This document shows positions 45,931-64,000 of a stretch of DNA of 64,000 nucleotides, one piece after another. The stretch's first letter is position 1. Every line of letters begins with the position of its first letter. The stretch spans positions 485,999 to 549,998 of the forward strand of contig CAVTRY010000023.1 in the NCBI GenBank assembly GCA_963737265.1, written 5' to 3'. Both the position numbers and the translations under genes were made by a program. The notes under the pieces were generated by a model, which worked only from the letters and a program-made list of their open reading frames with translations, was not told the origin of the DNA and made no database searches. Source of the stretch: an uncultured delta proteobacterium. GTDB lineage: Bacteria > Myxococcota_A > Polyangia > Fen-1088.

Positions 45931-47279
45931 CTCAAGCGTCGCCGCGATGTCGCGCCCGCAGCGCTTCTGGTAGCGTGCATTTCGGCCCTGGGCGCGGGCG
46001 CCGCCATGTGGCTTGCCGACATCCTGCGCGCGTTCAACGCCTTTACCGGGAAAGCCGTTCGCTACAAGCCGTTCCACAACCAGATCACCAAGCCGAAGTT
46101 TCCCGACTTCGTACGCGCGATTCTGGAGGAGTTGCTGGCAAAGCTCACCGCGCCCGTGCTCGAGGGGTTACCGAAGAGCAAGCTGGCCCAGTTCGAGGAA
46201 ATTGTGGCCCACGACGGAACCTCGTTTGCCCTCAAGAACACCCTCGCGAAGAAGTGGCCGGGGCGCTTCAAGAAGCTGACACCGGCTGCAGTAGAACTCC
46301 ACGTCACGATGAGTGTCCTCAGCGACAACCCGGTCGCGATTACCTTGGCTCCGGACAGGGAGGCTGAAGAACTGTCCAAAAATTGGACAGTTCTTCAGCA
46401 GCCGAGCCAAGGGCTCGGCCGCAGGTGGGGTGAAGTCCGCGAATTTACTTCGCGGACGAGGGGAGGGCAGCGGCCCTCCCTTCAAAAATCTTCAAGACGG
46501 GTCCATTTATGGACACGTCTTGAGCGCCCGTTCTCTCCCAAGGCGGCTTCTCTCAAGAACCACCTGCTGCTTGAGGACCGTGGATACCAGGAGCGAGAGT
46601 TCTTCGTCGCCGTACAAGACGCCGACGGTTCCTTCATAGTCCGTGGCACAAAGAGCATCCGGCCGACCATCCGGACCGCTCGCGATAGCCAGGGCAGACG
46701 TCTCCGTCACCTCGAAGGAAGGCGCCTCTCGTGGTCCCTGCTTCCCCGTCATGACGTCGACCTCGACATCGATTGGAAGCGCGACTCGGGCAAGCCCTAC
46801 AGCGGTCGTCTCGTCGTCATCTATGCCGAAGGAAAGCAAAACAAGGCGGCCTTTGTCTACCTACACACGAACTTGCCCCGTGAGACTTTCTCCGCGCACG
46901 ACGTGGGGCAGATTTACAGGCTAAGGTGGCAAGTCGAGCTGCTGCTCAAAGAATGGAAATCCCACTCAAACCTCCACAAATTCGCCACCGGCAAGGCCCC
47001 CATCGCCGAGGGCTTGATCTGGGCCAGCCTCCTCGCAGCTACGCTCAGGCGCTGCATCACCCACGCGGCCGAGCGTGGTGCGGCATCCCGCTGTCCACAC
47101 AGCGCGCAGCCCGTTCCGCCAAGCACTTCCTCGACGCAATCCTGGCTGCCGTCCTTGAATGCAGCACGAGCCTCTTCGACGACATACGCGCCGCCTTCGC
47201 TTTCCTCGTTGGCAACGCGCTTCGGGCACATCCGAAGCGCGACCGAAAAACCGGACGCCTCGCCGCGGGACTTCGCCAT
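45931..47279 (+). pseudogene. IS4-family transposase pseudogene (5'-truncated, MITE insertion, frameshift near 47078, 3' end interrupted by ISKra4)
   Basis: HDGTSFAL, AAVELH, DRGY, YRLRWQVELLLKEWK (YREK) motifs. Confidence 0.85.
46365..46523. mobile_element. 153-bp MITE with TGA target duplication
   Basis: Removal restores GAG GCT GAG CGC (EAER); imperfect TIRs AGAACTGTCCAAAAAT / AGACGTGTCCATAAAT. Confidence 0.75.
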
Positions 47280-49061
47280 GGGTGGGTTGCACGGGCCCGG
47301 GTTCTGGTGGCGGCTGAAGGGCCCGTTTTCCGAGCGCGCTACGGGACGTTGATTCGAGGGCGAGTTGGTGGGTGGCGCGCTCGGAAAACGGGCCCTGGCG
47401 TGGTTCCCAAAATGGAAGGAATTTGCGTAGGAAGGAGATTCATGGCGATGCCTTCAGCTATCCAAGAAGGAGGCACCGCCATGAGACGACCCAATGTCGC
47501 AGGATTGACTTTGCAGGCTCTGGAACCGCTCGTCCAGAAATTGAACGAGCTCGAACAACAAGCGCTGCGCGGCGATGGCATGTCCGTGGCGACGCTGGGG
47601 GCTGCGCTGGCGACGACGTTGTCGACTGTGGGCCGAAGAGCCATGGAACTGGTCATCCAACAGGCCGCGCGGGCTCATGGACCTGGACAAGTCTGCACCT
47701 GTGGAAAGCAAGCCAAATCCAGAGGATTTGAGAGAACGACGTTCGTGGCGAGATTCGGTCGGGTGGAAGCCGATCGTCGACGCAACGAGTGTGTTTGCGG
47801 CCGCAGCTGGTTTGCCTTTGACGAGGCTTGGGGCCTTCCTGCGGGCGAATACGCCGACGATGTGCGCGAGGCGACCGAAAGGCTGGCCTGCCGGATGGGC
47901 AGCTTCGACGAGGCCGTCGAGGAACTCCGTTACCTGTGGGCCGTGGCTCCCGACGGGAGCACCGCCAAGCGATGGGTGACCGAAGATGGAACGCGTGCCG
48001 CCCAGGCCGCCCAGGCCGATGCCGAAGCCCATTGGAGCAAGTACGACCAACAGGTGCACGCCCAGGCTCGCGGTGACCTGTGTGCGCCCAAGCGTACAGA
48101 GGGCTTCGGCGTGATCGAGGTTGACGGTGTTCACGTCCTGACCTGGAAACCAGGACAAGAGCCACGGCGCAAAGCGACCGACGAGGCGAAGGCGCCGTCT
48201 GCGGTCCCGAACGCCACACAGTCGGCAGCGGTCAGCGAGACCGGCGAACGTGCCCTTCGCCATCAGGCGCCGAGTACCCTGTCCGAGGTCGCTGGCTCGC
48301 CCATGGGGCCCACCGGGCGCTCACCACGGGTCGCCGGCCGCGAGGTGTGCATGGGACTGACCTACCTCGGGGAACACGCCTGCGAGGAGAGCCCCGGCCG
48401 AGGCGTCTTGCTGGACCGGCGCTACGTCGCAACACTCAACGACCGAGACGGCTTTTGGCACAAGCTGCACGCCGCCGCCACGACCCAGGGCGTGCTGTCT
48501 CGCCAGAAGGTAGTCCGTGTCTCCGACGGTGGCGCTTACTTCATCGAGCACAGCGACGAGATCTTCTGCGACCAGCCGTTGCTTGGCATCCTCGACTGCC
48601 AGCACGCCAAGCAGCATGTCTGGGAGGCAGGTCACAAGGTCGTGCCGGACAAGAAAGCAGTGCCATCTTGGGTCTTGCCACGTACCGAGGCCATCATGGA
48701 CGGCAAGGTCGACCAGGTGCTCTCGGGCCTCGCCCAAGAGCGGCAGCGTTCCACCGGCAGCCAAGCGGTCAAAGCCCTCGACGACTTGACCGGCTACCTG
48801 AGCCGCCACAAGCACATGATGGACTACCCCGCATACCACGCTGCCGGCTATCCGCTGGCCAGTGCCGCCATCGAAAGCACCAACAAGCGCCTCGTCGGCC
48901 GGCGCTGCAAGCAAGGCGGCATGCTCTGGAGCGAGGTCGGCCTTGAAGCCATGGTCGCGCTCAGGGTTGCCTTCTACAACCCGGGGGCCTGGCTCGCCCT
49001 CTGGCCTCACACCCAAGCCCAGGCCGCCCAGTCATGAAACCCGGACCCGTGCAACCCACCC
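47280..49061 (+). mobile_element. ISKra4-family insertion sequence
   Basis: 24-bp TIRs GGGTGGGTTGCACGGG(C/T)CCGGGTT with one mismatch bracket the transposase. Confidence 0.85.
47481..49037 (+). CDS. ISKra4-family DDE transposase
   Basis: AGGAGG RBS; CxC zinc motifs, VDG, SDGG, LDCQHA, SAAIESTNK...RCKQGGMLWS. Confidence 0.85.
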   Translation: MRRPNVAGLTLQALEPLVQKLNELEQQALRGDGMSVATLGAALATTLSTVGRRAMELVIQQAARAHGPGQVCTCGKQAKSRGFERTTFVARFGRVEADRRRNECVCGRSWFAFDEAWGLPAGEYADDVREATERLACRMGSFDEAVEELRYLWAVAPDGSTAKRWVTEDGTRAAQAAQADAEAHWSKYDQQVHAQARGDLCAPKRTEGFGVIEVDGVHVLTWKPGQEPRRKATDEAKAPSAVPNATQSAAVSETGERALRHQAPSTLSEVAGSPMGPTGRSPRVAGREVCMGLTYLGEHACEESPGRGVLLDRRYVATLNDRDGFWHKLHAAATTQGVLSRQKVVRVSDGGAYFIEHSDEIFCDQPLLGILDCQHAKQHVWEAGHKVVPDKKAVPSWVLPRTEAIMDGKVDQVLSGLAQERQRSTGSQAVKALDDLTGYLSRHKHMMDYPAYHAAGYPLASAAIESTNKRLVGRRCKQGGMLWSEVGLEAMVALRVAFYNPGAWLALWPHTQAQAAQS

Positions 49062-51718: not shown

Positions 51719-52337
51719 GGAACCCTCCGAGGGTATCCATCTCGAACGCGTAGGTGAAGCCGGGCTTGGCCCGGCGGAGCCAGAGCGCGGGAAGGTTTGG
51801 AAACCCTCCGAGGGTATCCATCTCGATCGCGTAGGCGAAGCCGGGTTGGCCCGGCGGAGCCAGAGCGCGGGAAGGTTTGGAAACCCTCCGAGGGTATCCA
51901 TCTCGATCGCGTAGGCGAAGCCGGGTTGGCCCGGCGGAGCCAGAGCGCGGGAAGGTTTGGAAACCCTCGGGACCTGCCACACACCCTTCCCACCCCTCGG
52001 GCTTCGCCCTCGCCCTCGCAGGGTATCCATCTCGAACGCGTAGGCGCAGCCGGGCTTAGCCCGGCGGAGCCAGAGCGCGGGAAGGTTTGGAAACCCTCGG
52101 GACCTGCCACGCACCCTTCCCACCCCTCGGGCTTCGCCCTCGCCCTCGCAGGGTATCCATCTCGAACGCGTAGGCGCAGCCGGGCTTAGCCCGGCGGAGC
52201 CAGAGCGCGGGAAGGTTTGGAAACCCTCGGGACCTGCCACACACCCTTCCCACCCCTCGGTCTTTGCCCTCGCCCTCGCAGGGTATCCATCTCGAACGCG
52301 TAGGCGCAGCCGGGCTTAGCCCGGCGGAGCCAGAGCC
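51719..52337. repeat. REP/BIME-like tandem array: three ~80-bp units plus three 130-bp units with a nested 50-bp insert
   Basis: AAACCCTC recurs at 51801, 51881, 51961, 52091, 52221; units hold ACCCTC/GAGGGT and GCCGGG/CCCGGC stems and a GTAG. Confidence 0.9.
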
Positions 52338-52912
52338 GTCAGCAACCACGACTGGTAACTCCTCCTGTTGGTGCCGGACTTGCGCGACCAGTCCAGCACG
52401 ATATGCCGCGCGTTCAGCAGAATCGGCAACCCCAGGCGTAGAAGGCAGATCAGCGGGCGGCGGCGGGACCGGAACTGACAATCCACGCGGCTGCCACTGC
52501 GGGGCTCAAGCAACTTTCGTGCCCCGCTGACCGACATCCTCCTTCATGGAGGCAGCGGCATGCGCAAAACCTGCGACCGGGTACACCTATGCCCGCCGGG
52601 AGCCGGAAAAGACCGCCCTTTTCCAGGTGCTCCAGCAGCATCTTCTGACCTTCGAGCAGGAGTGGACCGACAAGTCCGACGGCCGCACGCTGCCCAGCTT
52701 CGTCACCGAGGAGCTGCACGACTTCATGGGCTGTGGCGTCTTGGCCAGAGGCTTCGCACAACTTTTCTGTAAAACCTGCCACGAGCGGTACGTCGTGGCC
52801 TGGAGCTGTAAGGGTCGCGGCTTCTGTCCGAGCTGCGGCGGCAGACGCATGAACGCAGGAGCGCTGACTCTTGTCGACCACGTGCTGCCCGAAGTGCCCA
52901 TCCGACAATTCG

Positions 52913-52961
52913 CGACGGGCGCGGCGAAGCCGCGTGGGGCAGGGGCAGGGCGGGCAGGCCC
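52913..52961 (+). mobile_element. Hairpin/G-tract mini-insertion 1 (49 bp)
   Basis: Absent from copy 2; removal gives TTC GTA GTT ACG CTG. Confidence 0.85.
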
Positions 52962-53337
52962 TAGTTACGCTGCCTTTCCCGCTGAGGTTTCCCTTGGCCT
53001 TCGACGGAAAACTACTCGGCCAAGTCCTGCGCATCTTCATCGACACCGTGGCGGCCAACTACCGCAAGCGCCTGACGGCTCGGGGTATTGCCGACGGCGA
53101 GTGCGGCGCCGTCACGGTCATCCAGCGCGCCAACAGCGACCTGCGTCTCTCCCCGCATTTTCATGTCCTCCAGCTCGATGGCTGCTACGCCCCTGGGCGC
53201 GACGGCGGTACGCCCATCTTCCACCCGGCGCCGGAACTTGCCCAACAGGACGTCCTTGCCATCGTCGCGCGCGCCAGCAAGCGCATCCTCCGCTTCCTAA
53301 AGCGTCGCGGTGTCATCACCCTCGTCACCGCCCCCGG

Positions 53338-53404
53338 CGAGGGCACGCGCGAAGCGCGTGGGGTGGGTAGGTGGAGGGGTAGGTCCCGAAGTCCCCGAAG
53401 GGGG
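53338..53404 (+). mobile_element. Mini-insertion 2 (67 bp, divergent variant with tail hairpin)
   Basis: Removal gives CCC GGA GAC GGT (PGDG). Confidence 0.85.
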
Positions 53405-53525
53405 AGACGGTGAGCTCACCGTCGTCACCGACGAAACCATGGGCGACAAAGATCCGCTCCTGGCCCGCTTGTTGGCCGCCGCCACCGCGGGCGCCGCTCC
53501 CGCCGGCCCTGCGCACAAGCGCGCT

Positions 53526-53575
53526 AGGGCCTGCCCGCCCAACCCCTGCCCCACGCGGCTTCGCCGCGCCCGTCG
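53526..53575 (-). mobile_element. Mini-insertion 3 (50 bp)
   Basis: Near reverse complement of insertion 1; removal gives GCT CCC GTG. Confidence 0.85.
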
Positions 53576-53805
53576 CCCGTGCGTATCGTGCTCGACCCAG
53601 ACGCCACTCCCGTGGCCAAGGGCAAGCTATGCGGCCAGCAAGCCGGGTTTAACCTGCATGCGCAGACCAAGGTCGCCGCCAACGACAAGAAGGGTCGCGA
53701 GAACCTGTGCAAGTACATCTTGCGCCCGCCGCTGGCCAACGACCGCCTCAAGATCCTCGACGACGGTCACGTGAGGCTGGAGTTCAAGCGGCCTTGGTCC
53801 GTCGG

Positions 53806-53868
53806 CGACGGGCGCGGCGAAGCCGCGTGGGGCAGGGGTTGGGTGGGTAGGCCCTAGTCCCGTAGGGA
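53806..53868 (+). mobile_element. Mini-insertion 4 (63 bp, tail hairpin)
   Basis: Removal gives GTC GGC ACA TCG. Confidence 0.85.
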
Positions 53869-54202
53869 CACATCGTCAGTTGACCTTGCGCCGCTCGCCC
53901 TTATTGCGCGCTTGGCGGCCTTGGTTCCCCCTCCTCGTCGGCATGTCGTCAGATACTCGGGGGTCATCTCGTCACACTCCAGCCTCCGCAGCCAAGTCGT
54001 CCCAGTCCCCGCCGTGGCCGCGCCCGAGGAAGACGACAAGCCTTCACTGCCACTTTCACACTACATTTCCTGGTCCCAGCTTCTGAAAAAAACGTTCGAG
54101 ATCGACACCGTCTGCCCTCGCTGCAAAACCCCGCTGCGCCTCATCGCCATGGTCGAGACCGAGGACACCATCAAGAAGATTCTCTCTGCCATGGGCTTGC
54201 CC

Positions 54203-54267
54203 TGCTCCTTCGGAGCCTTGGGCCTACCCACCCTGCCCCTGCCCCACGCGGCTGCGCCGCGCCCGTC
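54203..54267 (-). mobile_element. Mini-insertion 5 (65 bp, tail hairpin)
   Basis: Removal gives CCC GCC GAG CCG. Confidence 0.85.
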
Positions 54268-54514
54268 GCCGAGCCGCCCAACCTCTGGCCCGCACGGCCG
54301 CCTCCCTCGCGATCTGGTGGCGAGGGCGGAGACTGGCTGAACTGACGGCACGTCGACCAGGTCGGGATGGAGTCGACTGCCCTGCGGCTCGAGAAAGACC
54401 CCGTCAGACCCCCGAAACCCGGTCAAGTGCGCTGCGCCAACGTGATCGGGGCCGACCTGATGCGGTCCGGCAGGGTTCTCCAACGCTCAAAATACCGCTT
54501 CGAATCGCCTATGG

Positions 54515-55062
54515 CCCGCCAACGCCGCCGCGTCGAGCGCGGATCTGTTGACCGATCTCAAATCAGGCTATCTGCTCGGCGCCCATCCGCGCCGCCAATT
54601 TCTCGCGCAAGCCATCGGCGTCATCGCCGGTACCCTCGCCACCGTGGTCGGCTTCCACCTGCTGGTGCCCGACGCGTCGGTGCTGACCGGCGCGGGCTCG
54701 GGGGCTCCCACTTTCGCGGCACCGAGCGCGCAGACCTGGCTTGCCGTGGCCCAGCTTTTTCAGCACGGCGTTGGCAGCCTTCACCCGATGGCACGGCACG
54801 GAATGGCGTGGGGACTGCTGGCCGGCGCGCTGCTGTCCGCGCTTGAAATCGCCCTGCCCCGCCGGCGACGCTGGATTCCCTCGCCCATCGGCCTCGGCCT
54901 CGGCTTCATCCTGCCCTTCTTCAATCCTTTCTCGATGCTCTTGGGGGCGGTTGGCGCCTGGCTGTGGGCGCGTCGCAACTACGCCCACGCCGAACGTTAC
55001 GTGGTCCCGGTGTCGTCGGGGATCATCGCCGGTGAGTCCATCGTCAGCGTGGCGATAGCTCT
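54515..55062 (+). pseudogene. OPT-family oligopeptide transporter, C-terminal fragment
   Basis: SADLLTDLKSGYLLG, APSAQTW, SGIIAGES; begins directly at the IS end. Confidence 0.8.
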
Positions 55063-55148
55063 CTTCGGCCCGCTGGTGGATCGCGTTTCTTTCGGTCGCC
55101 TCGGTCGGCGGCGGCCGTACATCCTGTTCGCCGAAGTCGGAATGGCGT
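55063..55148 (+). pseudogene. MFS transporter internal fragment
   Basis: GPLVDR...GRRRPYIL motif A, fused in frame to the OPT fragment. Confidence 0.65.
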
Positions 55149-55357
55149 CGCCAGCGCCCGTCTTCGTTGGTCAGGGGAAAGCCTGCCTGCTGCAGGACTT
55201 CGAGGTCGCGGTAAAGAGTTCGCGTGGACTGCTTTTCCTCTAAGGCGTCCTTCAGCTCAGCGGCTGTCATGCCACGCCTCGCGGCCTCAAGCGCACGCAG
55301 CAGCCGCCACTGCCGGATGAACTGCGCACCTCGATGGACAGGTCTGTCAGCGGTCAT
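55149..55357 (-). pseudogene. WYL/YafY-type regulator, N-terminal HTH fragment
   Basis: RQWRLLRAL...STRTLYRDLEVLQQAGFPL; similarity then ends. Confidence 0.7.
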
Positions 55358-55463
55358 GCCGCACCAGTGTACTCCCGGTCGGCCAGGTGCGATATGGAAC
55401 GACGGTGGAATTTGTGCTCTTGCAAGAAAGCCTGGTAGAGGCAGTCAGGAAGGGAATTGCAAA

Positions 55464-55805
55464 ATGAAATACATCTCGTCGATCCCCGTATTTTCCCCCG
55501 TATCTTTGGGCTTTTTCACCCTCTTGCTCGTCTCGCCCGCGGTTCGGGCACAGGACGCGCTTAGCCCTCCTCGCATGGCACCTCCCCCCTCGGATTCGGC
55601 GGCCCCCGCGGCCCCCGCGGCCCCCGCGCCCCCCGAGGCCAAGGACACGACGGCGTATTCCGGCCTGATCAACTCGCCGCTGCGATTCGGCCTGGGACTC
55701 AACGTGGGCAACTTGGTCACCGGGGTGACGGCCAAGCTGTGGGCGTCCTCGGCGGTTGCGTTTCAGACGGCGCTGGGTGAAGGGCCAGATGGCAACAACA
55801 TTCGC
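55464..55805 (+). pseudogene. Secreted/outer-membrane protein, N-terminal fragment
   Basis: Signal peptide (VRA-Q), PAA linker, FGLGL...GVTAKLW; cut by the next fragment. Confidence 0.55.
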
Positions 55806-55810
55806 TGGCT

Positions 55811-56516
55811 GGCGAGCCGACGCCCTATACGTGGCCATCCAAGAGTTCCTACTTCGGAGCCATCGACACCGCGTACCTGCCCAAGGACGTCTTCTACTTC
55901 TATCAGAGCAAATGGAACGCCAGTGGGCCCACCATGGTTCACATCGTTCCCATGAACTGGACCAACTGGACGGCCGGACAATCGGTAAAGGTCATGGTCT
56001 ACACCAATGCCGACAGCGTTCGAGCTCTTCCTCAACGACAAGTCGCAGGGCGCAAAGACGATGAGCGCTGCCACCGGACATTTGCAGTGGTCGGTTCCCT
56101 TCGCGACGGGCACGCTGCAGGCCAAGGCCACCAAGGGCGGTGCCGTCGCGACCGACACGGTGAAGACCGCCGGGGCGGCAGCGGCCTTGACCCTCACGGC
56201 CGACCGCGCTTCCATCGCCGCCGATGGTCGTGACCTCTCTTTCGTCGAGGTGGACATCGTCGACGCCCAGGGTGTCGTCGTGCCACAGGCCAACAACAAG
56301 GTCGACTTTACGATTGGTGGGCCAGGCGCGCTGGTGGGCCTCGACGCCGGAGATTCGACCAACCACGACTCCTACAAGGGCACCTCGCACGCCGCTTTCA
56401 GCGGCAAGCTCATGGCCATTGTCCAGGCCACGGCAACCGCCGGAAAGATCACGCTCAAGGCGACCTCCGGGTCGCTCACCGGTGGCTCCGTCGATATCAC
56501 GACAGCCACCCCCTAG
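55811..56516 (+). pseudogene. GH2 beta-galactosidase, C-terminal fragment (+1 shift near 56020)
   Basis: GEPTPY...SSYFGAID...PKD.FYFYQS, LFLND, AFSGKLMAIV. Confidence 0.8.
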
Positions 56517-56687
56517 ACTGCTGCCGGTGCACCAGTACATAAGCTGGGTGGGAATACTCCCTGGGTAGATGGGGGGTGCCGGGCAGATGGGGGGGACAGT
56601 GCGACATAATTAACAGATTATGCCTTATCAGACTTTTTTCGCTGATGACGCAGAGAAAGATCGGGCTTATTTGGACTAGGCTCCATT

Positions 56688-57103
56688 GTCTATACGATGA
56701 AGTTCGCGCGCAAGAAGTCCGGCCGCGGGAGCCAGTTCCGCGTCGCCCCTCTGGAGGGAGTCTGGGCGGCCGAGGGCTGTCCGGAGGAAGGCACCGTGCC
56801 GCCGCCCGAGAGCTGGACGTGGCGCCTGCGCATCACCGTTCCGGCGGACGTGGCCGCGGCCGAGATCACGGACACCGTGCGCGACGCCACGACGAAGAAG
56901 GGCGGCAAGCTCGAGGGTAGCGAGGCCGCGGCGCGCGTGTTCCTGGAGAAGATCCCCGAGCAGCGCTGCGGGCGCATCCTGCACATCGGGCCGTATGCCG
57001 ACGAGCCGCGCAGCTTCGCCGCGATGCAACCGGCGATCGCCGCAGCTGCGTTGCAGGGGGCGCGACGTCACATCGAGATCTACCTCGGCGACCCGCAGCG
57101 CAG
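56688..57103 (+). pseudogene. GyrI-like domain protein, internal fragment
   Basis: YTMKF, PLEGVW, HIGPYADE, HIEIYLGDP; both ends missing. Confidence 0.75.
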
Positions 57104-57305
57104 TGCATGCAAACGCACTTCGAGAGGCAGCTCGGGGAGCAGCAGTCCGATCTCAGCAAGCTACCAAGAGTCAGCCGACTGCCTTGGGCCTGCCTTGGGC
57201 CCCAAGCGCCGCCACCGCCGCAGCCTGGTCGCCGCCGTGGCCGCCTGCCTCAACCAGCGCGACAGCGAACCGCCCCCGGACGAAGGCGCGGGGCGCTGAG
57301 GGCGT

Positions 57306-59023
57306 GCTCAAGCAACTTCCGTGACCCGCTGACCGACATCTTCTTTCATGGAGGCAGCGGCATGCGCAAGACCTGCGACCGGCTACACCTATGCCCGCCG
57401 GGAGCCCGAGAAGACCGCGCTCTTCCAGGTGCTCCAGCAACACCTTCTGACCTTCGAGCAAGAGTGGACCGACAAGTCCGACGGCCGCACGCTGCCCAGC
57501 TTCGTGACCGACGAGCTGCACGACTTCCTAGGCTGTGGCATCCTCGCGCGGGGCTTCGCGCAACTTTTGTGTAAGACCTGCCACCAGCGGTATGCGGTGG
57601 CCTGGAGCTGCAAAGGTCGCGGCTTCTGTCCGAGCTGCGGCGGCAGACGCATGAACGCGGGCGCCCTGACTCTGGTCGACCACGTCCTGCCCGAAGTGCC
57701 CATCCGACAATTCGTGCTGACCGTGCCTTTCCCGCTGAGATTTCCCTTAGCCTTCGAAGGGAAATTGCTCGGCCAAGTCCTGCGCATCTTCATCGACACC
57801 GTCGCGTCCAACTATCGCAGGCGCATGGCAGATCGGGGGATTACCGACGGCGAGTCTGGCGCCGTCACTGTCATCCAGCGCGCCAACAGCGACCTGCGTC
57901 TCTCCCCGCATTTCCACGTTCTCCAGCTCGATGGCGTGTACGCCCCTGGCCGCGACGGCGGTTCCCCCATCTTCCACCCGGCGCCGGAACTTACCCAAGA
58001 GGATGTCCTTGCCATCGTCGAACGCACCAGTAAGCGCATCCTCCGCTTCCTAAAGCGTCGCGGGGTCATCACCCTCGTCACCGCGCCAGGCGACGGTGAA
58101 GTCACCGTCGTCACCGACGAAACCATCGGCGAGAAGGATCCGCTCCTGGCCCGACTCCTGGCCGCCGCCACCGCCGGAGCCTCCCCCGCCGGCCCCGCGC
58201 ACAAGCGGGCGCCTGTGCGCATCGTGCTCGACCCCGACGCCACGCCCGTGGCCAAAGGCAGACTATGCGCCCAGCATGCCGGGTTCAACCTGCATGCCCA
58301 GACCAAAGTCGCCGCCAACGACAAGAAGGGTCGCGAGAACCTGTGCAAGTACATCTTGCGCCCGCCCCTCGCCAACGACCGCCTCAAGATCCTCGACGAT
58401 GGTGACGTGAGGTTGGAGTTCAAGCGCCCGTGGTCCGATGGCACATCGTCGGTCGACCTTGCGCCGCTCGCCCTTATTGCCAGGCTAGCCGCGATCATCC
58501 CCCCTCCGCGTCGTCATGTCGTCAGATATTCGGGGGTCATCTCGTCACACTCCAGCCTCCGTAGCCAAGTCGTCCCAGTCCCGGCCGCGGCCACGCCCGA
58601 GGAAAACGACAAGCCTTCACTGCCCCTTTCCCACTACATTTCTTGGAGCCAGCTCCTGAAAAGGACGTTCGACATCGACACCGTCTGCCCTCGCTGCAAA
58701 ACCCCGCTGCGCCTCATCGCCATGGTCGAGACCGAGGACACCATCAAGAAGATTCTCTCTGCCATGGGCTTGCCCACCGAGCCGCCCAAACTCTGGCCCG
58801 CACGGCCGCCTCCCTCGCGATCTGGTGGCGAGGGCGGAGACTGGCTGAACTGACGGCACGTCGACCAGGTCGGGATGGAGTCGACTGCCCTGCGTGCTCG
58901 AAGAAAGACCCCGTCAGGCCCCAGAAATCCGGTCAAGCGCGCCGCGCCAACGCGATCGGGGCCGACCTGATGCGGTCCGGCAGGGTTCTCCGACGCTCAA
59001 AACACCCTTTGATTCCCCTATGG
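57306..59023 (+). mobile_element. ISCR/IS91-like element, copy 2 (intact)
   Basis: Shares 5' and 3' non-coding ends with copy 1; oriIS-like end TTTGATTCCCCTATGG. Confidence 0.88.
57348..58853 (+). CDS. IS91/ISCR-family HUH rolling-circle transposase with zinc-binding domain
   Basis: CKTC...SCKGRGFCPSC, HUH motif PHFH, single catalytic Tyr (LCKYILRP), C-terminal CPRC. Confidence 0.93.
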   Translation: MEAAACARPATGYTYARREPEKTALFQVLQQHLLTFEQEWTDKSDGRTLPSFVTDELHDFLGCGILARGFAQLLCKTCHQRYAVAWSCKGRGFCPSCGGRRMNAGALTLVDHVLPEVPIRQFVLTVPFPLRFPLAFEGKLLGQVLRIFIDTVASNYRRRMADRGITDGESGAVTVIQRANSDLRLSPHFHVLQLDGVYAPGRDGGSPIFHPAPELTQEDVLAIVERTSKRILRFLKRRGVITLVTAPGDGEVTVVTDETIGEKDPLLARLLAAATAGASPAGPAHKRAPVRIVLDPDATPVAKGRLCAQHAGFNLHAQTKVAANDKKGRENLCKYILRPPLANDRLKILDDGDVRLEFKRPWSDGTSSVDLAPLALIARLAAIIPPPRRHVVRYSGVISSHSSLRSQVVPVPAAATPEENDKPSLPLSHYISWSQLLKRTFDIDTVCPRCKTPLRLIAMVETEDTIKKILSAMGLPTEPPKLWPARPPPSRSGGEGGDWLN

Positions 59024-59224
59024 TCCTTCTGCCAGGCGGACAGTGTTGGGACTTCGCCCGTCGGCAGCATGCCGGAGATCGAGACCCGATGTCTACCTGA
59101 GTTCGATGCCGTTTCAGGATACCGCAGGAAGTCACCTCCTCGGTGGAATTGTGCCACGTTTGTCAGGATCGTCGGTCCGCACTTCTCGGAGACCGCTTCC
59201 ACGCGCATTACCCTCTCCTCGTCT

Positions 59225-60139
59225 TCAAATACGGAGACACACGTCACGTGAGGTTTCCGTGAGTGTCCAGCCCAAGGGCGTAATCGAGAACTGGTCGGCA
59301 AGATCGTATGGCAGGACCTGCTCCGTCCATGGGCGGCGCGGTTCTTCCATGAGAAACTGCCGACAAACCATCATCCCAAGTGCCAACCGGTCGCTGGTGA
59401 AAGACATCAACGTGCGCTCCTCGGAGAGTGACATTCGTCGACGGTCGATGGGAAAGCCGCGGAACTTCCCGGAATGGATATTCTCCACCGGTCCGTTGCG
59501 CCAGGCCACATTCGTAAGGGCATTCGCAAAAACACGGCTGGCATTTTGCGCGACATCAGCGCGGGCGTGGTCAAGGTAGGACTGGTTGGATGCCTTCACG
59601 AAACGGGCAGCCAACTCCGGCTCCGCAAGCGCGCAGAACTCGGTGATCTTCGGTTTTGAGGTCGTCATTGGCATCGGCAGGTATGCAATAGCTCGGGTTA
59701 CAAGTTGCTCGTACGCCAACCCTCCCATGTCTTCGCGGAATAGATCGATCCACTCCGAGAGCGCGGCCGAGGCCTCAATATTGATGCGCGCCATTTCCGA
59801 ATCGCTGATGCGGCTTGCGTCTTCCGAACCGATCTCCGACCACTCTGGCTTGTCATGGTCAAGGAGAATGCCAAGATACGAACCCCACCGGAGGATCAGC
59901 GCCGTGGCGGCTACGCCTTCGCGACCGGCAGACATGTCGGAAGTGGTCTTCTGCGGATCGGGCTTGTCACGCAGGTAAGCTAGCAGTTGGTGGAAGAGTG
60001 TGGTCTCAGGCGGATGGATGACCCGCGCAGGACCAGTTTCACCTTGGATGTCCTCGTAGGTTCCAGCATCGAGAACCAGTTCTTCGTTGACCCGCACACT
60101 GAGCTTGCCAGCCGAGTGATGCCGGGAAAGATTGGTCAT
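59225..60139 (-). CDS. Hypothetical protein
   Basis: About 304-aa ORF preceded by a sigma-70-like promoter. Confidence 0.65.
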   Translation of the reverse strand: MTNLSRHHSAGKLSVRVNEELVLDAGTYEDIQGETGPARVIHPPETTLFHQLLAYLRDKPDPQKTTSDMSAGREGVAATALILRWGSYLGILLDHDKPEWSEIGSEDASRISDSEMARINIEASAALSEWIDLFREDMGGLAYEQLVTRAIAYLPMPMTTSKPKITEFCALAEPELAARFVKASNQSYLDHARADVAQNASRVFANALTNVAWRNGPVENIHSGKFRGFPIDRRRMSLSEERTLMSFTSDRLALGMMVCRQFLMEEPRRPWTEQVLPYDLADQFSITPLGWTLTETSRDVCLRI

Positions 60140-60169
60140 AGTAAAACAAATAGTTGACGCTATTCCTGA

Positions 60170-60199
60170 AGTATAATTGAAGGTGTTTCTCGCCGTCAA
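60170..60199 (-). promoter_or_regulatory. Putative sigma-70 promoter
   Basis: TTGACG-N18-TATACT on the minus strand upstream of ATG 60139. Confidence 0.5.
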
Positions 60200-60661
60200 T
60201 GGCAGTAGGAATGTTGAACACCTCACGTGCCCGGGCACCGGGTATTCGGGTTCAAATCCGGTTGGGGCGACTTCACGAATTACCAGCAAGTACTGAAAAG
60301 CTGGCTCAACCATCACGAGAAATCGGATTCCATCTGTTGCCAACCATGGACACAAATGCCCAGGTCTTGCCACCTCTTGGGCAACCTGCTGTCAACGACC
60401 CGAACTGAAGTCACCACTGATAAGAACACCGTCGACTATACTGCAGGCGGTGTTCTTGTTTCTGCGCAGCTGGTCCGTGACTGCGGCGCTAACCCTTTCA
60501 GCCCGCACCTATGGCCGCCGAGGTTGGGGGCCTCGATCATGTACTCATTGCAATCCAACTCACTGGTCCAGCGTGGCGTGGCCTGTCCTCGACCGGTGCT
60601 GCCGCGCTCAAAAGGATCATCGACCCACGCTTGTCGAAGATCACTTCCAGAGTCGAACGCG

Positions 60662-61120
60662 TCAAGTAGAATTTCCCATGTGGACAAAGATGGGTTCTAG
60701 GCCATTGGGTTTCTTACCATTGAGAACGCCAGCACTTCCCGTAATTGTGTATTGCTCCTTCTTCTTTCGATTGGCCTTAATCCAGAACTGCGTTGATGTG
60801 CACGGGAGAATCACGGATTCCACCTCATCCAATGAGAGGCATACCATACCGTTTCTCTCACAGACAAGGACGACAAATACAGCATCTAGACTAAACCCGG
60901 ATTGGCGCACTTCATCCACGCCAGTTCTGTCAAAGGTAAACTGCCACGGCCGAAGCCTGGCAGTGGAATGCTTTACCCAAAGCCCAACCGAGTCGTTCAC
61001 TACGTACCAGTCCAAACGACCCTCGTTGGCTGTTCCGCGGATGGAAATCCATTTGGGCGCCGATCGATCTACAAGTTCGAAGAGTACCGAACCGTGATAG
61101 AGACTATATTGGGGGATCAT
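60662..61120 (-). CDS. Hypothetical protein coupled to the Z1 gene (possible nuclease-fold partner)
   Basis: ATGA overlap with the Z1 gene; YHG...WVKHST...WQFTF...LVC. Confidence 0.65.
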   Translation of the reverse strand: MIPQYSLYHGSVLFELVDRSAPKWISIRGTANEGRLDWYVVNDSVGLWVKHSTARLRPWQFTFDRTGVDEVRQSGFSLDAVFVVLVCERNGMVCLSLDEVESVILPCTSTQFWIKANRKKKEQYTITGSAGVLNGKKPNGLEPIFVHMGNST

Positions 61121-62970
61121 CTCTTTTCATTCTTCAGGAATTGGATTGAACCCTGGAACTTATAGAACAAACGCGCGTTCCCATCCCGGTTGCGAAATAT
61201 CTTCAAATGATGAATTGCACCTGGGAAACGAGCAACCTCTCTCTGGGACTTTCCGAAAAAACCTTTCTTTCGAGCTATCCTATTCACATTGGCATCTGGG
61301 TCGCCACTATAGCCGGAGATGTCTGATGACTTGTGAACGGCTATTGAAGCGTCACCCCTGGGAAGGGTGGACCTGATGTACTTCTGGAGGTAGCCTGGAA
61401 AACCAGATTCTCCAACCAACTTGGCGAGTGAAGCCATCTTTCCCTGGTTGGCGCTCTTCTTAGCGCAAATTTGGTCCATGGCTTCGGTAAACTTGAAAAT
61501 GGGGAAGGACATCTCCCCTCGATTGAGGTCGACTGTCGAACGATCGATACTAGCACTGGATACAGCGGCGATTCGGTTGTCCCCAAGCCACACGGGTGAT
61601 CCCAGGCGGTCGCGGATTGCTGTCAATGACAACCTGTGAAACACGAAACACCTGTGCCAATCCAAATACAGGGCATTCGGTATAGTCAGTTCAAAATGCT
61701 CTAGATAGTCGCCTCTACTTCCAAACATGCGGGCCCGCTGTATGTACGTGTCTTGTTGAATTTTATGTTTCACGTCGCGCGTGAAGAACATGGCAAGGAG
61801 ATTTTCTAGTGTCACTCCCCGAGAGACGATGTTTCCACCAATGATGATCGTAAACAAGCTTGTTGGCTTTGTGGCCGCCAGCGAGTTGTCTTTCCAGTCA
61901 CGCTCGCTGTTGAGCACGACGATGGAGTTCCTCCCAACATTGTCGACGACATAGCGAGTCACTTTGTCAGCGTCGTCGGCTGGATAATTCTTTTTGGCAA
62001 TCTGCCAGACCTGTTCTGTAAATCTTGCAAACTGGCCGGCATCCCGTTTCACCAAGGCATCGAGTGCGGCATGGATAGTGGACCAATCGGTCCGGTGGTC
62101 CGCCTTCTTCCCGCTGGTGTGAACCAAAAATGAGTAATTTTTCTCTTCGTCTGGGTGGCTGCTGAGGTTGAGATGTGCAACAGTAACGAGGAAGCGAAAC
62201 AGCGCCTCCCGCGCATACTTTGGGTCCGACCCCTGGTCTGGAAGCAAAGTTCGTCGATATGCTACCGGCCCTGTCAGCGGGAAGAAGACATTCTGACCTG
62301 TGTACTTGGAGTGAGGCGGAAAGAGAACCCACAATTCGTTGTCGTTCGCAAAAGTATTGTTGAGGTCTAGACGTGCGGGTGTGGCCGTGACTCCTATGTA
62401 GGCTCCTGTTGCGCCAAGTACGTCGTTGATGAGTCTATTGATCGGCGTCACTTGACCGGTGTTTATCTTGCTATTGGGAGATGCATAGTCGGCCTCATCA
62501 TCGATTACGACAATGTCGTGAACATTGCCAATCTTTTCCAGAAGCTTGCGGAGATCGCTTCCGTTCTTCTTGCAAAACACGACGTGCTTGCGGCCCTTGA
62601 TCTGGACCACAGGATCTAGAATCTCAGAGAAATTGCGTGCGCCCGGTGCTAGTCCCGATGACTTAAACCTTGTTAAATTTTGGCCAAGGAGGTCAACGCT
62701 GTCGTTCAGTAGATGAAGTACAAACTGACGTCCTTCGTCGAGAAGTTTTGCGGTCAGGCAAATCATCATCTCGGTCTTGCCGCTTTGGGGTTCGCCATAA
62801 ATCACAAAGGATCGCGCTCCACCTGCGAGATTCCTGATCGTGCCGTCAACTGTCTCTTCGATCTGTTTCGTGTCCTTGTGCGCTCCTCTTAGCCGGCGAA
62901 GCTGACGCTCATATTGGAGAGGACTTTCGGCGTCCGATGTGAATTTCGCAATGTCGAACTTGTCCGCCAT
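61117..62970 (-). CDS. Z1-domain protein with SF2 helicase-like motifs
   Basis: GEPQSGKT, IDDEADYAS, TATP, IGGNIVSRGVTLE, QRARMFG; lower GC than host genes. Confidence 0.88.
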   Translation of the reverse strand: MADKFDIAKFTSDAESPLQYERQLRRLRGAHKDTKQIEETVDGTIRNLAGGARSFVIYGEPQSGKTEMMICLTAKLLDEGRQFVLHLLNDSVDLLGQNLTRFKSSGLAPGARNFSEILDPVVQIKGRKHVVFCKKNGSDLRKLLEKIGNVHDIVVIDDEADYASPNSKINTGQVTPINRLINDVLGATGAYIGVTATPARLDLNNTFANDNELWVLFPPHSKYTGQNVFFPLTGPVAYRRTLLPDQGSDPKYAREALFRFLVTVAHLNLSSHPDEEKNYSFLVHTSGKKADHRTDWSTIHAALDALVKRDAGQFARFTEQVWQIAKKNYPADDADKVTRYVVDNVGRNSIVVLNSERDWKDNSLAATKPTSLFTIIIGGNIVSRGVTLENLLAMFFTRDVKHKIQQDTYIQRARMFGSRGDYLEHFELTIPNALYLDWHRCFVFHRLSLTAIRDRLGSPVWLGDNRIAAVSSASIDRSTVDLNRGEMSFPIFKFTEAMDQICAKKSANQGKMASLAKLVGESGFPGYLQKYIRSTLPRGDASIAVHKSSDISGYSGDPDANVNRIARKKGFFGKSQREVARFPGAIHHLKIFRNRDGNARLFYKFQGSIQFLKNEKR

Positions 62971-63136
62971 GAGCCAGTTCCTTTCGGGTGTTGATTGCGT
63001 GATTGATCAGACGGAGATCGGGTTCCTCGAATTTCTTCCGAGGCGAAGAGTACCGCTGCTCACTAAAGGGACGGAGGAAGCGAGTGCTCAGCTCGACTTG
63101 GATCTTCGAAGCAGCTTGTCCGATTGTCTCAGGCAT
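62909..63136 (-). pseudogene. Remnant of a MORC/MutL-type GHKL ATPase gene
   Basis: VELSTRFL..FSEQ.YSSP.K.FEE resembles the segment before GHKL motif I; the rest is missing. Confidence 0.5.
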
Positions 63137-63799
63137 CGGATGTGCTGGGATGTCCTGGGGATTGATCATGGGGTATCGAACCCTCGATAGGCGCTCGACG
63201 AGCAAAGTGACGGATTGGGTAGTCTTTCGTCCCCTTGAAATTCAATAGGTCCCGACAATCCGAACTGAGTTGCCGAGAATTCCGGACGCGAACGCGATGT
63301 AGGTTCATGTGGTGAGAACTCGCTTGTTGCGAGTATCAGAATACGCCCGAGTCGACCCAAAGACAACACCGTGCGGCAGCGGTCTCAGGGCGATCGAGTT
63401 CTACGTACCCTTCGAGAACGCTCAATTGGGCAGCAACGGCCTCGCCTGCTTGCGCGTCTCTGGTGGGCGCGCTGATCGAACAGCTGCGCACCCGCCATCG
63501 TCAAAGGCTGCGAAGGACACGACCTGAGTGCCCTCATGGAGGGTACCGGCGGGCGATCACCCGACTGAGCGATGGACGGTGAATGAAGGGATTCCCGATT
63601 CCAGTTCCCGCGTGCTGTATAGGTCGGCAGGAAGGACAATCGGGATGCGGCTACCTGCAAGGCAAGGAGGTAGCACGCTGCGCCCTACGCATGAGAGAGA
63701 GATAGGCGAGCATGGCAACGACCAGGGAAAGCGCAGGGCCTGGACTTCCCGAGAAGGATGTACGCCCGTGCACGAGTCTGATCTGGGCCTTGCTATCGG

Positions 63800-64000
63800 G
63801 CTGGGTTCGCGGTCCAGCTTGCGGGGGTGAGCTCGGACATGCGCGAGAGGGCATTACCCCGCTCCAGCGTGTCGATGGCGTCCTGGAGGTAGCGTCTGGG
63901 GGCGATACCCCAGGATGATGCAGTCGTCACCGGAGAAACAGCGAAGGAAGTAGCCTCGCTGGTTGATGGCGTAGGTCGTGGCGCGGCACACCTGCAGAGT
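63800..64000 (-). pseudogene. IS66-family transposase, degraded C-terminal remnant
   Basis: Broken frames read ATTYAINQ..YF.R and PRRYLQDAI...SELTPASW. Confidence 0.55.

Follow-up and report, generated by a model that had tools for sequence, protein, structure and literature searches.

The window analyzed here is a stretch of 64,000 nucleotides from the genome of an uncultured delta proteobacterium, corresponding to positions 485999-549998 of contig C23 in G000, a genome of 6.55 Mb in 25 contigs with an estimated contamination of 7.6%. It contains two copies of an insertion sequence (IS) that resembles the ISCR elements of the IS91 family: copy 1 (52504-54515, + strand), which is decayed, and copy 2 (57306-59025, + strand), which is intact. 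Comparison of the copies with each other places the right end of copy 1 at 54515/6 and the left end of copy 2 at 57305/6. Exactly between these two ends lies a chain of gene fragments (54516-57305) without a single complete gene. From left to right, the chain is made of pieces of an oligopeptide transporter (OPT), an MFS transporter, a helix-turn-helix (HTH) regulator, a secreted protein, and a GH2 glycosidase, followed by a non-coding block, the middle of a GyrI-like gene, and two short pieces. A first-pass annotation, made from the sequence alone, had attributed this arrangement to serial capture by the IS; every piece it listed is present where it had been placed or close by, and it was right that no gene is complete. 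The two short pieces, which it had left without a name, are a fragment of a different IS91-like transposase (57107-57198) and the tail of a receiver-domain gene (57199-57305). We describe below which parts of the chain have travelled with the IS.

The ends of copy 2 were set by the comparison of copies, and its transposase gene, tnpA (57348-58853), encodes a protein of 501 amino acids. Two Pfam domains scored above the Pfam cut-offs in this protein, Y2_Tnp (PF04986, E 1.4e-22, residues 171-401) and Zn_Tnp_IS91 (PF14319, E 5.7e-15, residues 37-126); as Pfam gave only these two, no helicase domain was found. The best NCBIfam match is ISCR_clade_Ia (292 bits against a cut-off of 925, E 8.3e-87, profile positions 18-486 of 509), and the IS91 equivalog NF033538 gives 86.5 bits, below its cut-off of 125. 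The nearest plasmid-borne relative is a 509-amino-acid "IS91 family transposase" adjoining aac(3)-IIe on pHWBA8_1, with 36.9% amino acid identity. Because of these scores and of this distant relative, copy 2 appears to be a so far unnamed member of the IS91 family, on the branch that resembles ISCR, which agrees with the first-pass assignment to ISCR. The candidate HUH motif is HFH at residues 188-190, and the candidate catalytic tyrosine is the single one in KYILRPP; by eye, without alignment to characterised enzymes, there is no Y-x3-Y pair nearby. The right (oriIS-side) end lies about 172 nt 3' of the transposase gene and reads ...CCCTATGGTC (also written ...CTATGGTC). It has a 5-bp stem (TCAAA...TTTGA) 12 nt from the end, which folds no better than shuffled sequences (z -0.35 and +0.42). 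The left boundary is common to 16 copies and often overrun, and no hairpin is predicted there (z +1.3 to +1.6). We found no inverted repeat of at least 20 nt linking 57306 and 59025. By eye, no direct repeats were seen in the flanks of the window unit or of two other units described below (copies B and C), i.e., there is no target-site duplication.

Three other copies in the genome, hereafter A, B, and C, are 99.7-99.9% identical to copy 2, and each has a different length of upstream flank in common with it. Copy A runs from C23:3213 to the start of the contig (C23:3213->1) and matches the window at 55810-59021, so that position 55810 marks the start of a shared flank of 1496 nt. Copy B (C14:451898->449187) shares 985 nt: its alignment covers 56315-59025 and its true start is 56321. 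Copy C (C14:446421->444505) matches 57107-59025 and shares 199 nt. Over these three stretches, identity to the window is 99.75-99.85%. An older and more divergent copy at C12:78083 matches from 57199, with a shared flank of 107 nt. Over the four near-identical copies, the nested upstream flanks are thus of 199, 985, 1496, and at least 1975 nt. By these alignments, the right 1.5 kb of the chain (55810-57305) has demonstrably moved with the IS, and the nested series of shared flanks anticipated by the first-pass annotation exists.

Some of these loci retain what the window has lost. In copy A, the GH2 reading frame continues across the junction at C23:3213 (...FIWTGFDYIGEPTPY...) to reach 396 amino acids in total (C23:3695-2508), before being cut at C23:3692/3 by a different multi-copy IS of 1.49 kb. 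The latter (C23:3693-5183) is found at about 100% identity in at least 13 places and is nested beside a further multi-copy IS of 1.56 kb (C23:5184-6743). At C12, the match to the receiver tail (C12:77966-78082, 97.7%) is part of a receiver gene that runs on upstream, next to another copy of the IS. Since GH2 is continuous at A and the receiver gene is continuous at C12, these two loci represent donor-like states, and the window junctions 55809/10 and 57198/9 mark insertions of a flank-and-IS unit into another gene. Three of the layer boundaries are matched by the end of a flank or by a gene that continues, which supports serial capture by one-ended transposition. Among the recent copies, the pattern is different. 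The boundary of copy B (56320/1) lies inside the GH2 piece, and the DNA past the boundaries of B and C is unrelated to the window DNA at these positions. Therefore, the units of the window, B, and C look like slices of different lengths from one pre-existing A-like flank, without hop-by-hop growth, although copy C may instead be the survivor of an earlier stage. This leaves no room among the recent copies for the first-pass idea that each hop added 0.1-0.7 kb; the repeated hops it proposed are supported for the older layers, where at least three junctions (57198/9, 57106/7, and 55809/10) behave as former unit ends, and not for the recent copies. There are about 10 variable sites among the four copies, with three changes private to A, and these single-nucleotide differences do not give the order of copying.

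Sharing of flanks is restricted to one side of the element across the genome. The family was mapped by its ends, 16 of them left and 23 right, and downstream sequence is available for 22 of the right ones. Upstream flanks abutting the IS are common to 15 of the 120 pairs of left ends, over 29-1499 nt; these pairs fall into four groups, which take in 12 of the 16 left ends. Not one of the 231 pairs of right ends has a downstream flank in common, with the proviso that stretches under about 20 nt would escape detection. One of the four groups is a second sub-lineage of the IS (C8, C14:428048, and C12:19919), which also has nested flanks, of 515 and 186 nt. Sharing that is confined to the upstream side points to one-ended rolling-circle transposition and not to segmental duplication or recombination. 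This asymmetry, the nested flanks, and the continuity of the donor genes are what the sequences show.

The passenger DNA next to copy 2 is layered. Outward from the IS come the receiver tail, the IS91-like transposase fragment, the GyrI-like middle, and the 3' end of GH2. The receiver tail (57199-57305, + strand) consists of the last ~33 codons and the stop, matches the C-terminus of an ORF (open reading frame) of the relative G001 (locus L019, 619-2409), and is probably the oldest captured layer. The transposase fragment (57107-57198, + strand) comes from the C-terminal region of the protein and reads QSDLSKLPRVSRLPWA; a homologous ORF is found at C16:247448-247490 (95% nucleotide identity). 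The GyrI-like piece (about 56670-57106, + strand) corresponds to residues about 70-213 of 226. It has 80 homologues, nearly all annotated as PF06445, shows 78% identity by BLASTP to residues 77-213 of a 226-residue homologue (P0002), and has no copy in the genome outside the flanks of the IS. Position 57107 is the left end of the copy C unit and lies within 1-2 nt of the point where the GyrI-like homology stops, hence 57106/7 was once the end of a unit. The non-coding block 3' of GH2 starts at 56519 and ends at about 56670, this right edge being approximate. It is identical in the three copies that carry it; the interval 56519-56669 has no further match in the genome and its ORFs contain no Pfam family. 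The GH2 C-terminus itself (55810-56518, + strand; Pfam Glyco_hydro2_C5, E 3e-35, and DUF4982) is present as first described, except that in the window it carries a private 1-nt insertion at 56019 that shifts the frame. A predicted ORF of 200 amino acids with an ATG start (56697-57299) spans several of these layers and is present in three of the flank copies. In this chimera, GyrI-like residues 77-213 are joined through 31 out-of-frame codons to the receiver tail, which keeps its native frame.

Apart from the HTH piece, the left 1.3 kb (54516-55809) is confined to this locus, and no part of it was found upstream of any other copy of the IS. The first-pass view that the whole chain had been moved by the IS thus finds no evidence of travel for this part, which is best read as the wreckage of a landing site between two IS copies; its movement with the IS is not demonstrated. 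The OPT piece (54516-55063, + strand) is a C-terminus of ~183 residues (Pfam OPT, E 6.9e-29, profile positions 452-622 of 623) that lacks the last ~8 codons of a full-length paralogue (C19:35344-33395), and it has 87.4% nucleotide identity to C19:33966-33419. It begins right at the end of copy 1, as expected if copy 1 had inserted into an OPT gene, which was the alternative that the first-pass annotation itself had offered. An N-terminal OPT fragment of 61 codons is present at C23:249963-250145; with 87% nucleotide identity, it has diverged from the C19 gene as much as the window C-terminus, and the two may be parts of one gene that was broken up. The MFS piece (55064-55146, + strand) covers the motif-A region and reads GPLVDRVSFGRLGRRRP in frame with OPT; it is 80% identical over 84 nt to an MFS-like ORF of the relative G004 (contig C243, locus L016), and there is a match at the protein level too. 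By translation, the in-frame OPT-MFS chimera noticed earlier is real, but its origin by capture is not the simplest one. As the paralogous C19 locus, like the counterpart in G004, also consists of an OPT gene followed by an MFS remnant, the junction is probably a ~0.2-kb deletion within one OPT-MFS locus.

The two other pieces of the left part are less easily placed. The N-terminus of a WYL-type HTH regulator (55147-55405, - strand; Pfam HTH_20 and HTH_11) comprises 70 codons and 48 nt upstream, and has a full-length homologue in G001 (locus L017). It is 99.6% identical to C8:25723-25981, i.e., a recent duplicate, the C8 piece being longer (350 versus 259 nt). The edge at 55405/55406 corresponds to the base to C8:25981/25982, the point at which this sequence on C8 abuts a diverged IS copy at its right end. 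The secreted-protein piece was not found beyond this C8 IS, though it would be expected there had C8 received an insertion into an HTH/secreted-protein junction like that of the window. The DNA that separates the right end of an IS from the HTH gene in G001 (L017, 711-2815) was not found in G000, and native sequence upstream of the HTH gene can be aligned only to about 20 nt before the ATG. The secreted-protein piece (55406-55809, + strand) is an N-terminus with a signal peptide, made of 58 nt upstream and 115 codons from the ATG at 55464. A tblastn search with a stop-to-stop frame at C18:239984-240694 gave 68% amino acid identity to residues 22-139 of that frame.

The source loci of the chain were sought in 40 relatives, where its pieces occur at dispersed loci with at most 86% nucleotide identity. 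In G001, for example, GH2 lies at C7:311k, OPT at C9:1268k, HTH at C7:80k, and the secreted protein at C9:905k. Hence, the mosaic is neither due to chance nor the remains of one collinear locus, a possibility that the first-pass annotation had also raised. Its suggestion to map the fragments to full-length donors in this genome led to paralogues of OPT (C19), HTH (C18), the secreted protein (C18), and GH2 (C11) with only 83-90% identity. Judged by this divergence, none of the paralogues on C19, C18, and C11 is the donor.

Copy 1 has an identity of about 90% to copy 2, against which it shows direct repeats (D3-D9). Inverted repeats (I1-I4) were found as well, and the first ORF of copy 1 retains Zn_Tnp_IS91; its right end lines up with those of the other copies. 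It is interrupted by four G+C-rich palindromic inserts of ~54 nt in both orientations (52912-52965, 53524-53577, 53805-53858, and 54217-54270). There are 22 matches of this palindrome in the genome, and those with compared coordinates are inside or beside copies of the same IS family, which suggests a small mobile element targeting this IS. Just upstream, the segment 52461-52503 (+ strand) is a flank carried with copy 1: its 43 nt are 100% identical to the flank of a copy at C19:10874, and they abut the IS left end in both. Of the orphan piece 52338-52503 that had been singled out before copy 1, these 43 nt are therefore shared with another flank, and the remainder is not. Other features surround the two copies. 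A tandem array with units of 80 and 130 nt and six copies of an 86-nt core occupies 51723-52358, just 5' of copy 1, and a 703-residue ORF (46926-49037) with a match to ISKra4-family transposases (177 bits, cut-off 205) indicates another IS nearby. Directly 3' of copy 2, the G+C content falls from ~65% to ~50% (59100-64000), in a region with no homologue in 12 relatives of the genus. This region encodes a 617-residue protein with a weak match to the anti-phage Z1-domain protein MzaC (E 2e-9, far below the cut-off).

Taken together, we think it likely that copy 2 is a recently active element of the ISCR-like kind within the IS91 family, that the right 1.5 kb is its layered passenger DNA, and that the left 1.3 kb is wreckage of the site where it landed. 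We infer that replication would start at the right end and run back through the element, often overshooting the left end, so that upstream DNA of variable length would be copied with the element to a new site (one-ended transposition). The older layers, whose order we also infer, would have been acquired as follows. The element would have landed just after a receiver-domain gene, then moved with the 107-nt receiver tail into another IS91-like transposase gene. The resulting unit would have landed in a GyrI-like gene, and the one formed there on the 3' side of a GH2 gene. Units with flanks of 1496, 985, and 199 nt would then have been copied from such a donor to three further sites, of which the window is one, its unit splitting the secreted-protein gene at 55809/55810. 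The left 1.3 kb would be next in line for capture.

Several observations weigh against this scenario. The GyrI-like, OPT, MFS, and secreted-protein pieces have no donor of at least 95% identity in the genome. The other half of the split secreted-protein gene was found neither 3' of copy 2 nor elsewhere in the genome; therefore, either the insertion in the window was not simple, or the site was rearranged later, or the piece was carried in. Copies B and C on C14 have frameshifted transposase genes, those of copy 2 and copy A being intact and identical. No conserved target 4-mer follows the right end in the eight right-end flanks compared, unlike in IS91 and IS801: the observed ones are CTTC, AATC, AGCT, CTCC, ACGG, and CCGT, without the CTTG, GTTC, and GTCC of the IS91 family. 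Nor is there a clear 4-mer at the left ends of five units (GCTC, GCCC, GCCA, ATGC, TGGC), so the common target motif for which the first-pass annotation had suggested a check did not emerge. The last four bases of the element itself, GGTC in 6 copies and GGCC in 2, might be the target. An empty site was not found for any of the three recent insertions among 13 genomes of the genus, because the DNA at 59026-61100 and between the IS copies of C14 is strain-specific or consists of other transposases. Finally, given the 25 contigs and the estimated contamination, some of the "copies" could come from co-assembled strains.

Support from reads was sought in Logan contigs, assembled from the short reads of four soil runs that belong to a single study and may be the source sample. 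The GH2-continuous junction at 55810 and the copy C junction at 57107 were both recovered in separate short-read contigs of the soil metagenome runs X1 and X2, the former also in a 6.9-kb contig of X2. Differences private to single copies were seen in read contigs too (A>G at 57097, C>A at 57207, and the insertion at 56143). The junctions in the form they take in the window (55146/7, 55405/6, and 55809/10) are not demonstrably bridged by read contigs, which adds to the points against our interpretation, and the bins 54640-55107 and 55576-55809 have next to no cover. Exact 30-mers over 55809/10 and 57106/7 had 0 matches in the metagenome contig collection, from which the window's own records may be excluded. 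One contig that covers the 55810-56086 region of GH2 with 6.6 kb more upstream DNA has a word depth of 26 in X2 and 99 in X1, against 3-13 for the IS flank, which suggests that an intact GH2 gene is present in a relative or allele of greater abundance.

The same data can be read in other ways. Mis-joins at near-identical repeats of 1.7-3.2 kb in a metagenome-derived assembly, or a mixture of strains, could have produced the chain or the apparent copies, and the 25 contigs and estimated contamination of the assembly, the start of a contig inside one IS copy, the window-specific junctions for which no bridging read contig can be demonstrated, and the missing 30-mers would all fit with this. However, assemblers make no joins in unique sequence, which is where the junctions 55063/4, 55146/7, and 55405/6 are found; the copy C and GH2-continuous junctions recur in separate contigs of two runs, and private differences of the copies are also present in reads. 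We thus regard an artefact as very improbable. Scarcely more credible is that the mosaic is junk left by deletions and homologous recombination among IS copies, with the shared flanks being segmental duplications. The genome is dense in IS elements and fragments: there are dozens of matches for this family, and the 1.49-kb IS occurs at least 13 times. The C8 HTH locus is a patchwork too, and a retrospective study of IS801 put most genomic IS801 fragments down to reorganisation (PMC3189936). But recombination should lead to sharing on both sides, when it was found upstream for 12 of the 16 left ends and downstream for none of the 231 right-end pairs. Moreover, the shared flanks are nested, every one is anchored at the left end of the IS, and their boundaries lie in unique sequence and not in repeats.

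A less remote, if still unlikely, alternative is that the whole chain (54516-57305) is a passenger of copy 2, with the OPT, MFS, HTH, and secreted-protein pieces each coming from an earlier landing site. A unit 54516-59025 would then have inserted beside copy 1, or the right end of copy 1 would have served as a stop. This would account for the abrupt junctions throughout, for source loci that are unlinked in relatives, for a chain that starts exactly at the right end of copy 1, and for the lack of a secreted-protein C-terminal half 3' of copy 2, as expected if the N-terminal piece was carried in. The HTH piece, a 99.6% duplicate of C8:25723-25981 whose edge at 55405 falls on the boundary of the C8 IS right end, also speaks for it. 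Yet no part of 54516-55809 occurs upstream of other IS copies, the OPT-then-MFS order found at C19 too argues for an internal deletion of ~0.2 kb rather than capture, and the C8 HTH piece lies on the downstream side of the IS, which is not mobilised in the IS91 model. The stop just mentioned can be generalised into a conjecture to which we give a small chance: in this family, the oriIS end of a resident copy would precisely halt read-through arriving from the neighbouring copy downstream, turning the spacers between IS copies into mobile cassettes and amplifying chimeric frames. In keeping with this, the chain adjoins copy 1 exactly at its right end, and the HTH edge matches the right-end junction of the C8 IS. 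If true, such cassettes would parallel, in bacteria, the exon shuffling by Helitrons, as exemplified by the fusion of GyrI-like residues 77-213 with the receiver tail and by the OPT-MFS fusion.

ISCR elements, as Toleman et al. reportedly described in 2006, have no recognisable terIS and routinely mobilise upstream DNA. In IS91-family elements, transposition begins at oriIS and ends at terIS without target duplication, and 1-14% of IS91 and IS1294 events do not terminate there (PMC13181058). One-ended transposition carries adjacent sequence of variable lengths (PMC5737581). The mechanism of ISCR transposition lacks experimental proof according to section 7 of a 2026 paper (PMC13393415). The closest parallel is IS801 of Pseudomonas syringae, a rolling-circle IS of the IS91 family with variable upstream recruitment. 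In its native host, IS801 makes full copies that take along 290, 1017, or 1431 nt of the DNA upstream, and also fragments in which the right end is retained (PMC3189936); the lengths here are 199, 985, and 1496 nt, and the right ends (23) exceed the left ends (16). Unlike copy 2, IS801 recruits DNA that ends in a tetranucleotide resembling its left end and has a defined target 4-mer (PMC3189936), and neither is evident here. In addition, the passenger in our case is multi-layered, with four unrelated genes, and the evidence is comparative, when that for IS801 is experimental.

IS91, IS1294, and IS1294b have an HUH transposase with Y2_Tnp and Zn_Tnp_IS91, distinct ends, no target duplication, and termination failures that move adjacent DNA (PMC13181058); copy 2 resembles them in these features, its HUH motif being a candidate one. 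In contrast with IS91 and IS1294, copy 2 lacks orf121, has no CTTG, GTTC, or GTCC after its right end, and has no predicted left-end hairpin. The likeness to ISCR elements lies in the best family match, ISCR_clade_Ia, in the rolling-circle read-through proposed to move upstream DNA, and in a right end ~170 nt after the gene (PMC13393415). Contrary to the clade Ia ISCR beside aac(3)-IIe, copy 2 is chromosomal and multi-copy, belongs to a soil bacterium, and has a left end that is definable in 16 copies, with no resistance gene or integron seen beside it. Helitrons work in a similar way, with read-through of the terminating end, stepwise capture of fragments, and amplification of chimeric frames (PMC4778049). 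However, copy 2 is not a member of this group: it has no Rep-helicase fusion, its host is bacterial, and the captured side is 5' of the transposase gene. We did not find a bacterial multi-layer chain of gene fragments described in the literature surveyed, and do not claim that none exists. The mechanism matches one-ended transposition, already established experimentally for IS801, IS91, and IS1294 and proposed in the ISCR model, so that no new mechanism is involved. The departures, as far as can be read from the sequence, are the lack of an IS91-type target 4-mer and of a predicted left-end hairpin, and a transposase far from the named ones.

The value of the locus lies in how unusually well this genome documents a behaviour known for the family, keeping together a donor-like locus, three recent products with flanks of differing length, and older capture layers. 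These provide comparative evidence that a branch resembling ISCR moves upstream DNA as the model says, and indicate that, in the chromosome of a bacterium, successive hops can build chimeric gene fragments and multiply them. Copy 2 is thus a candidate active ISCR-like element, and its surroundings are a natural record of one-ended transposition.

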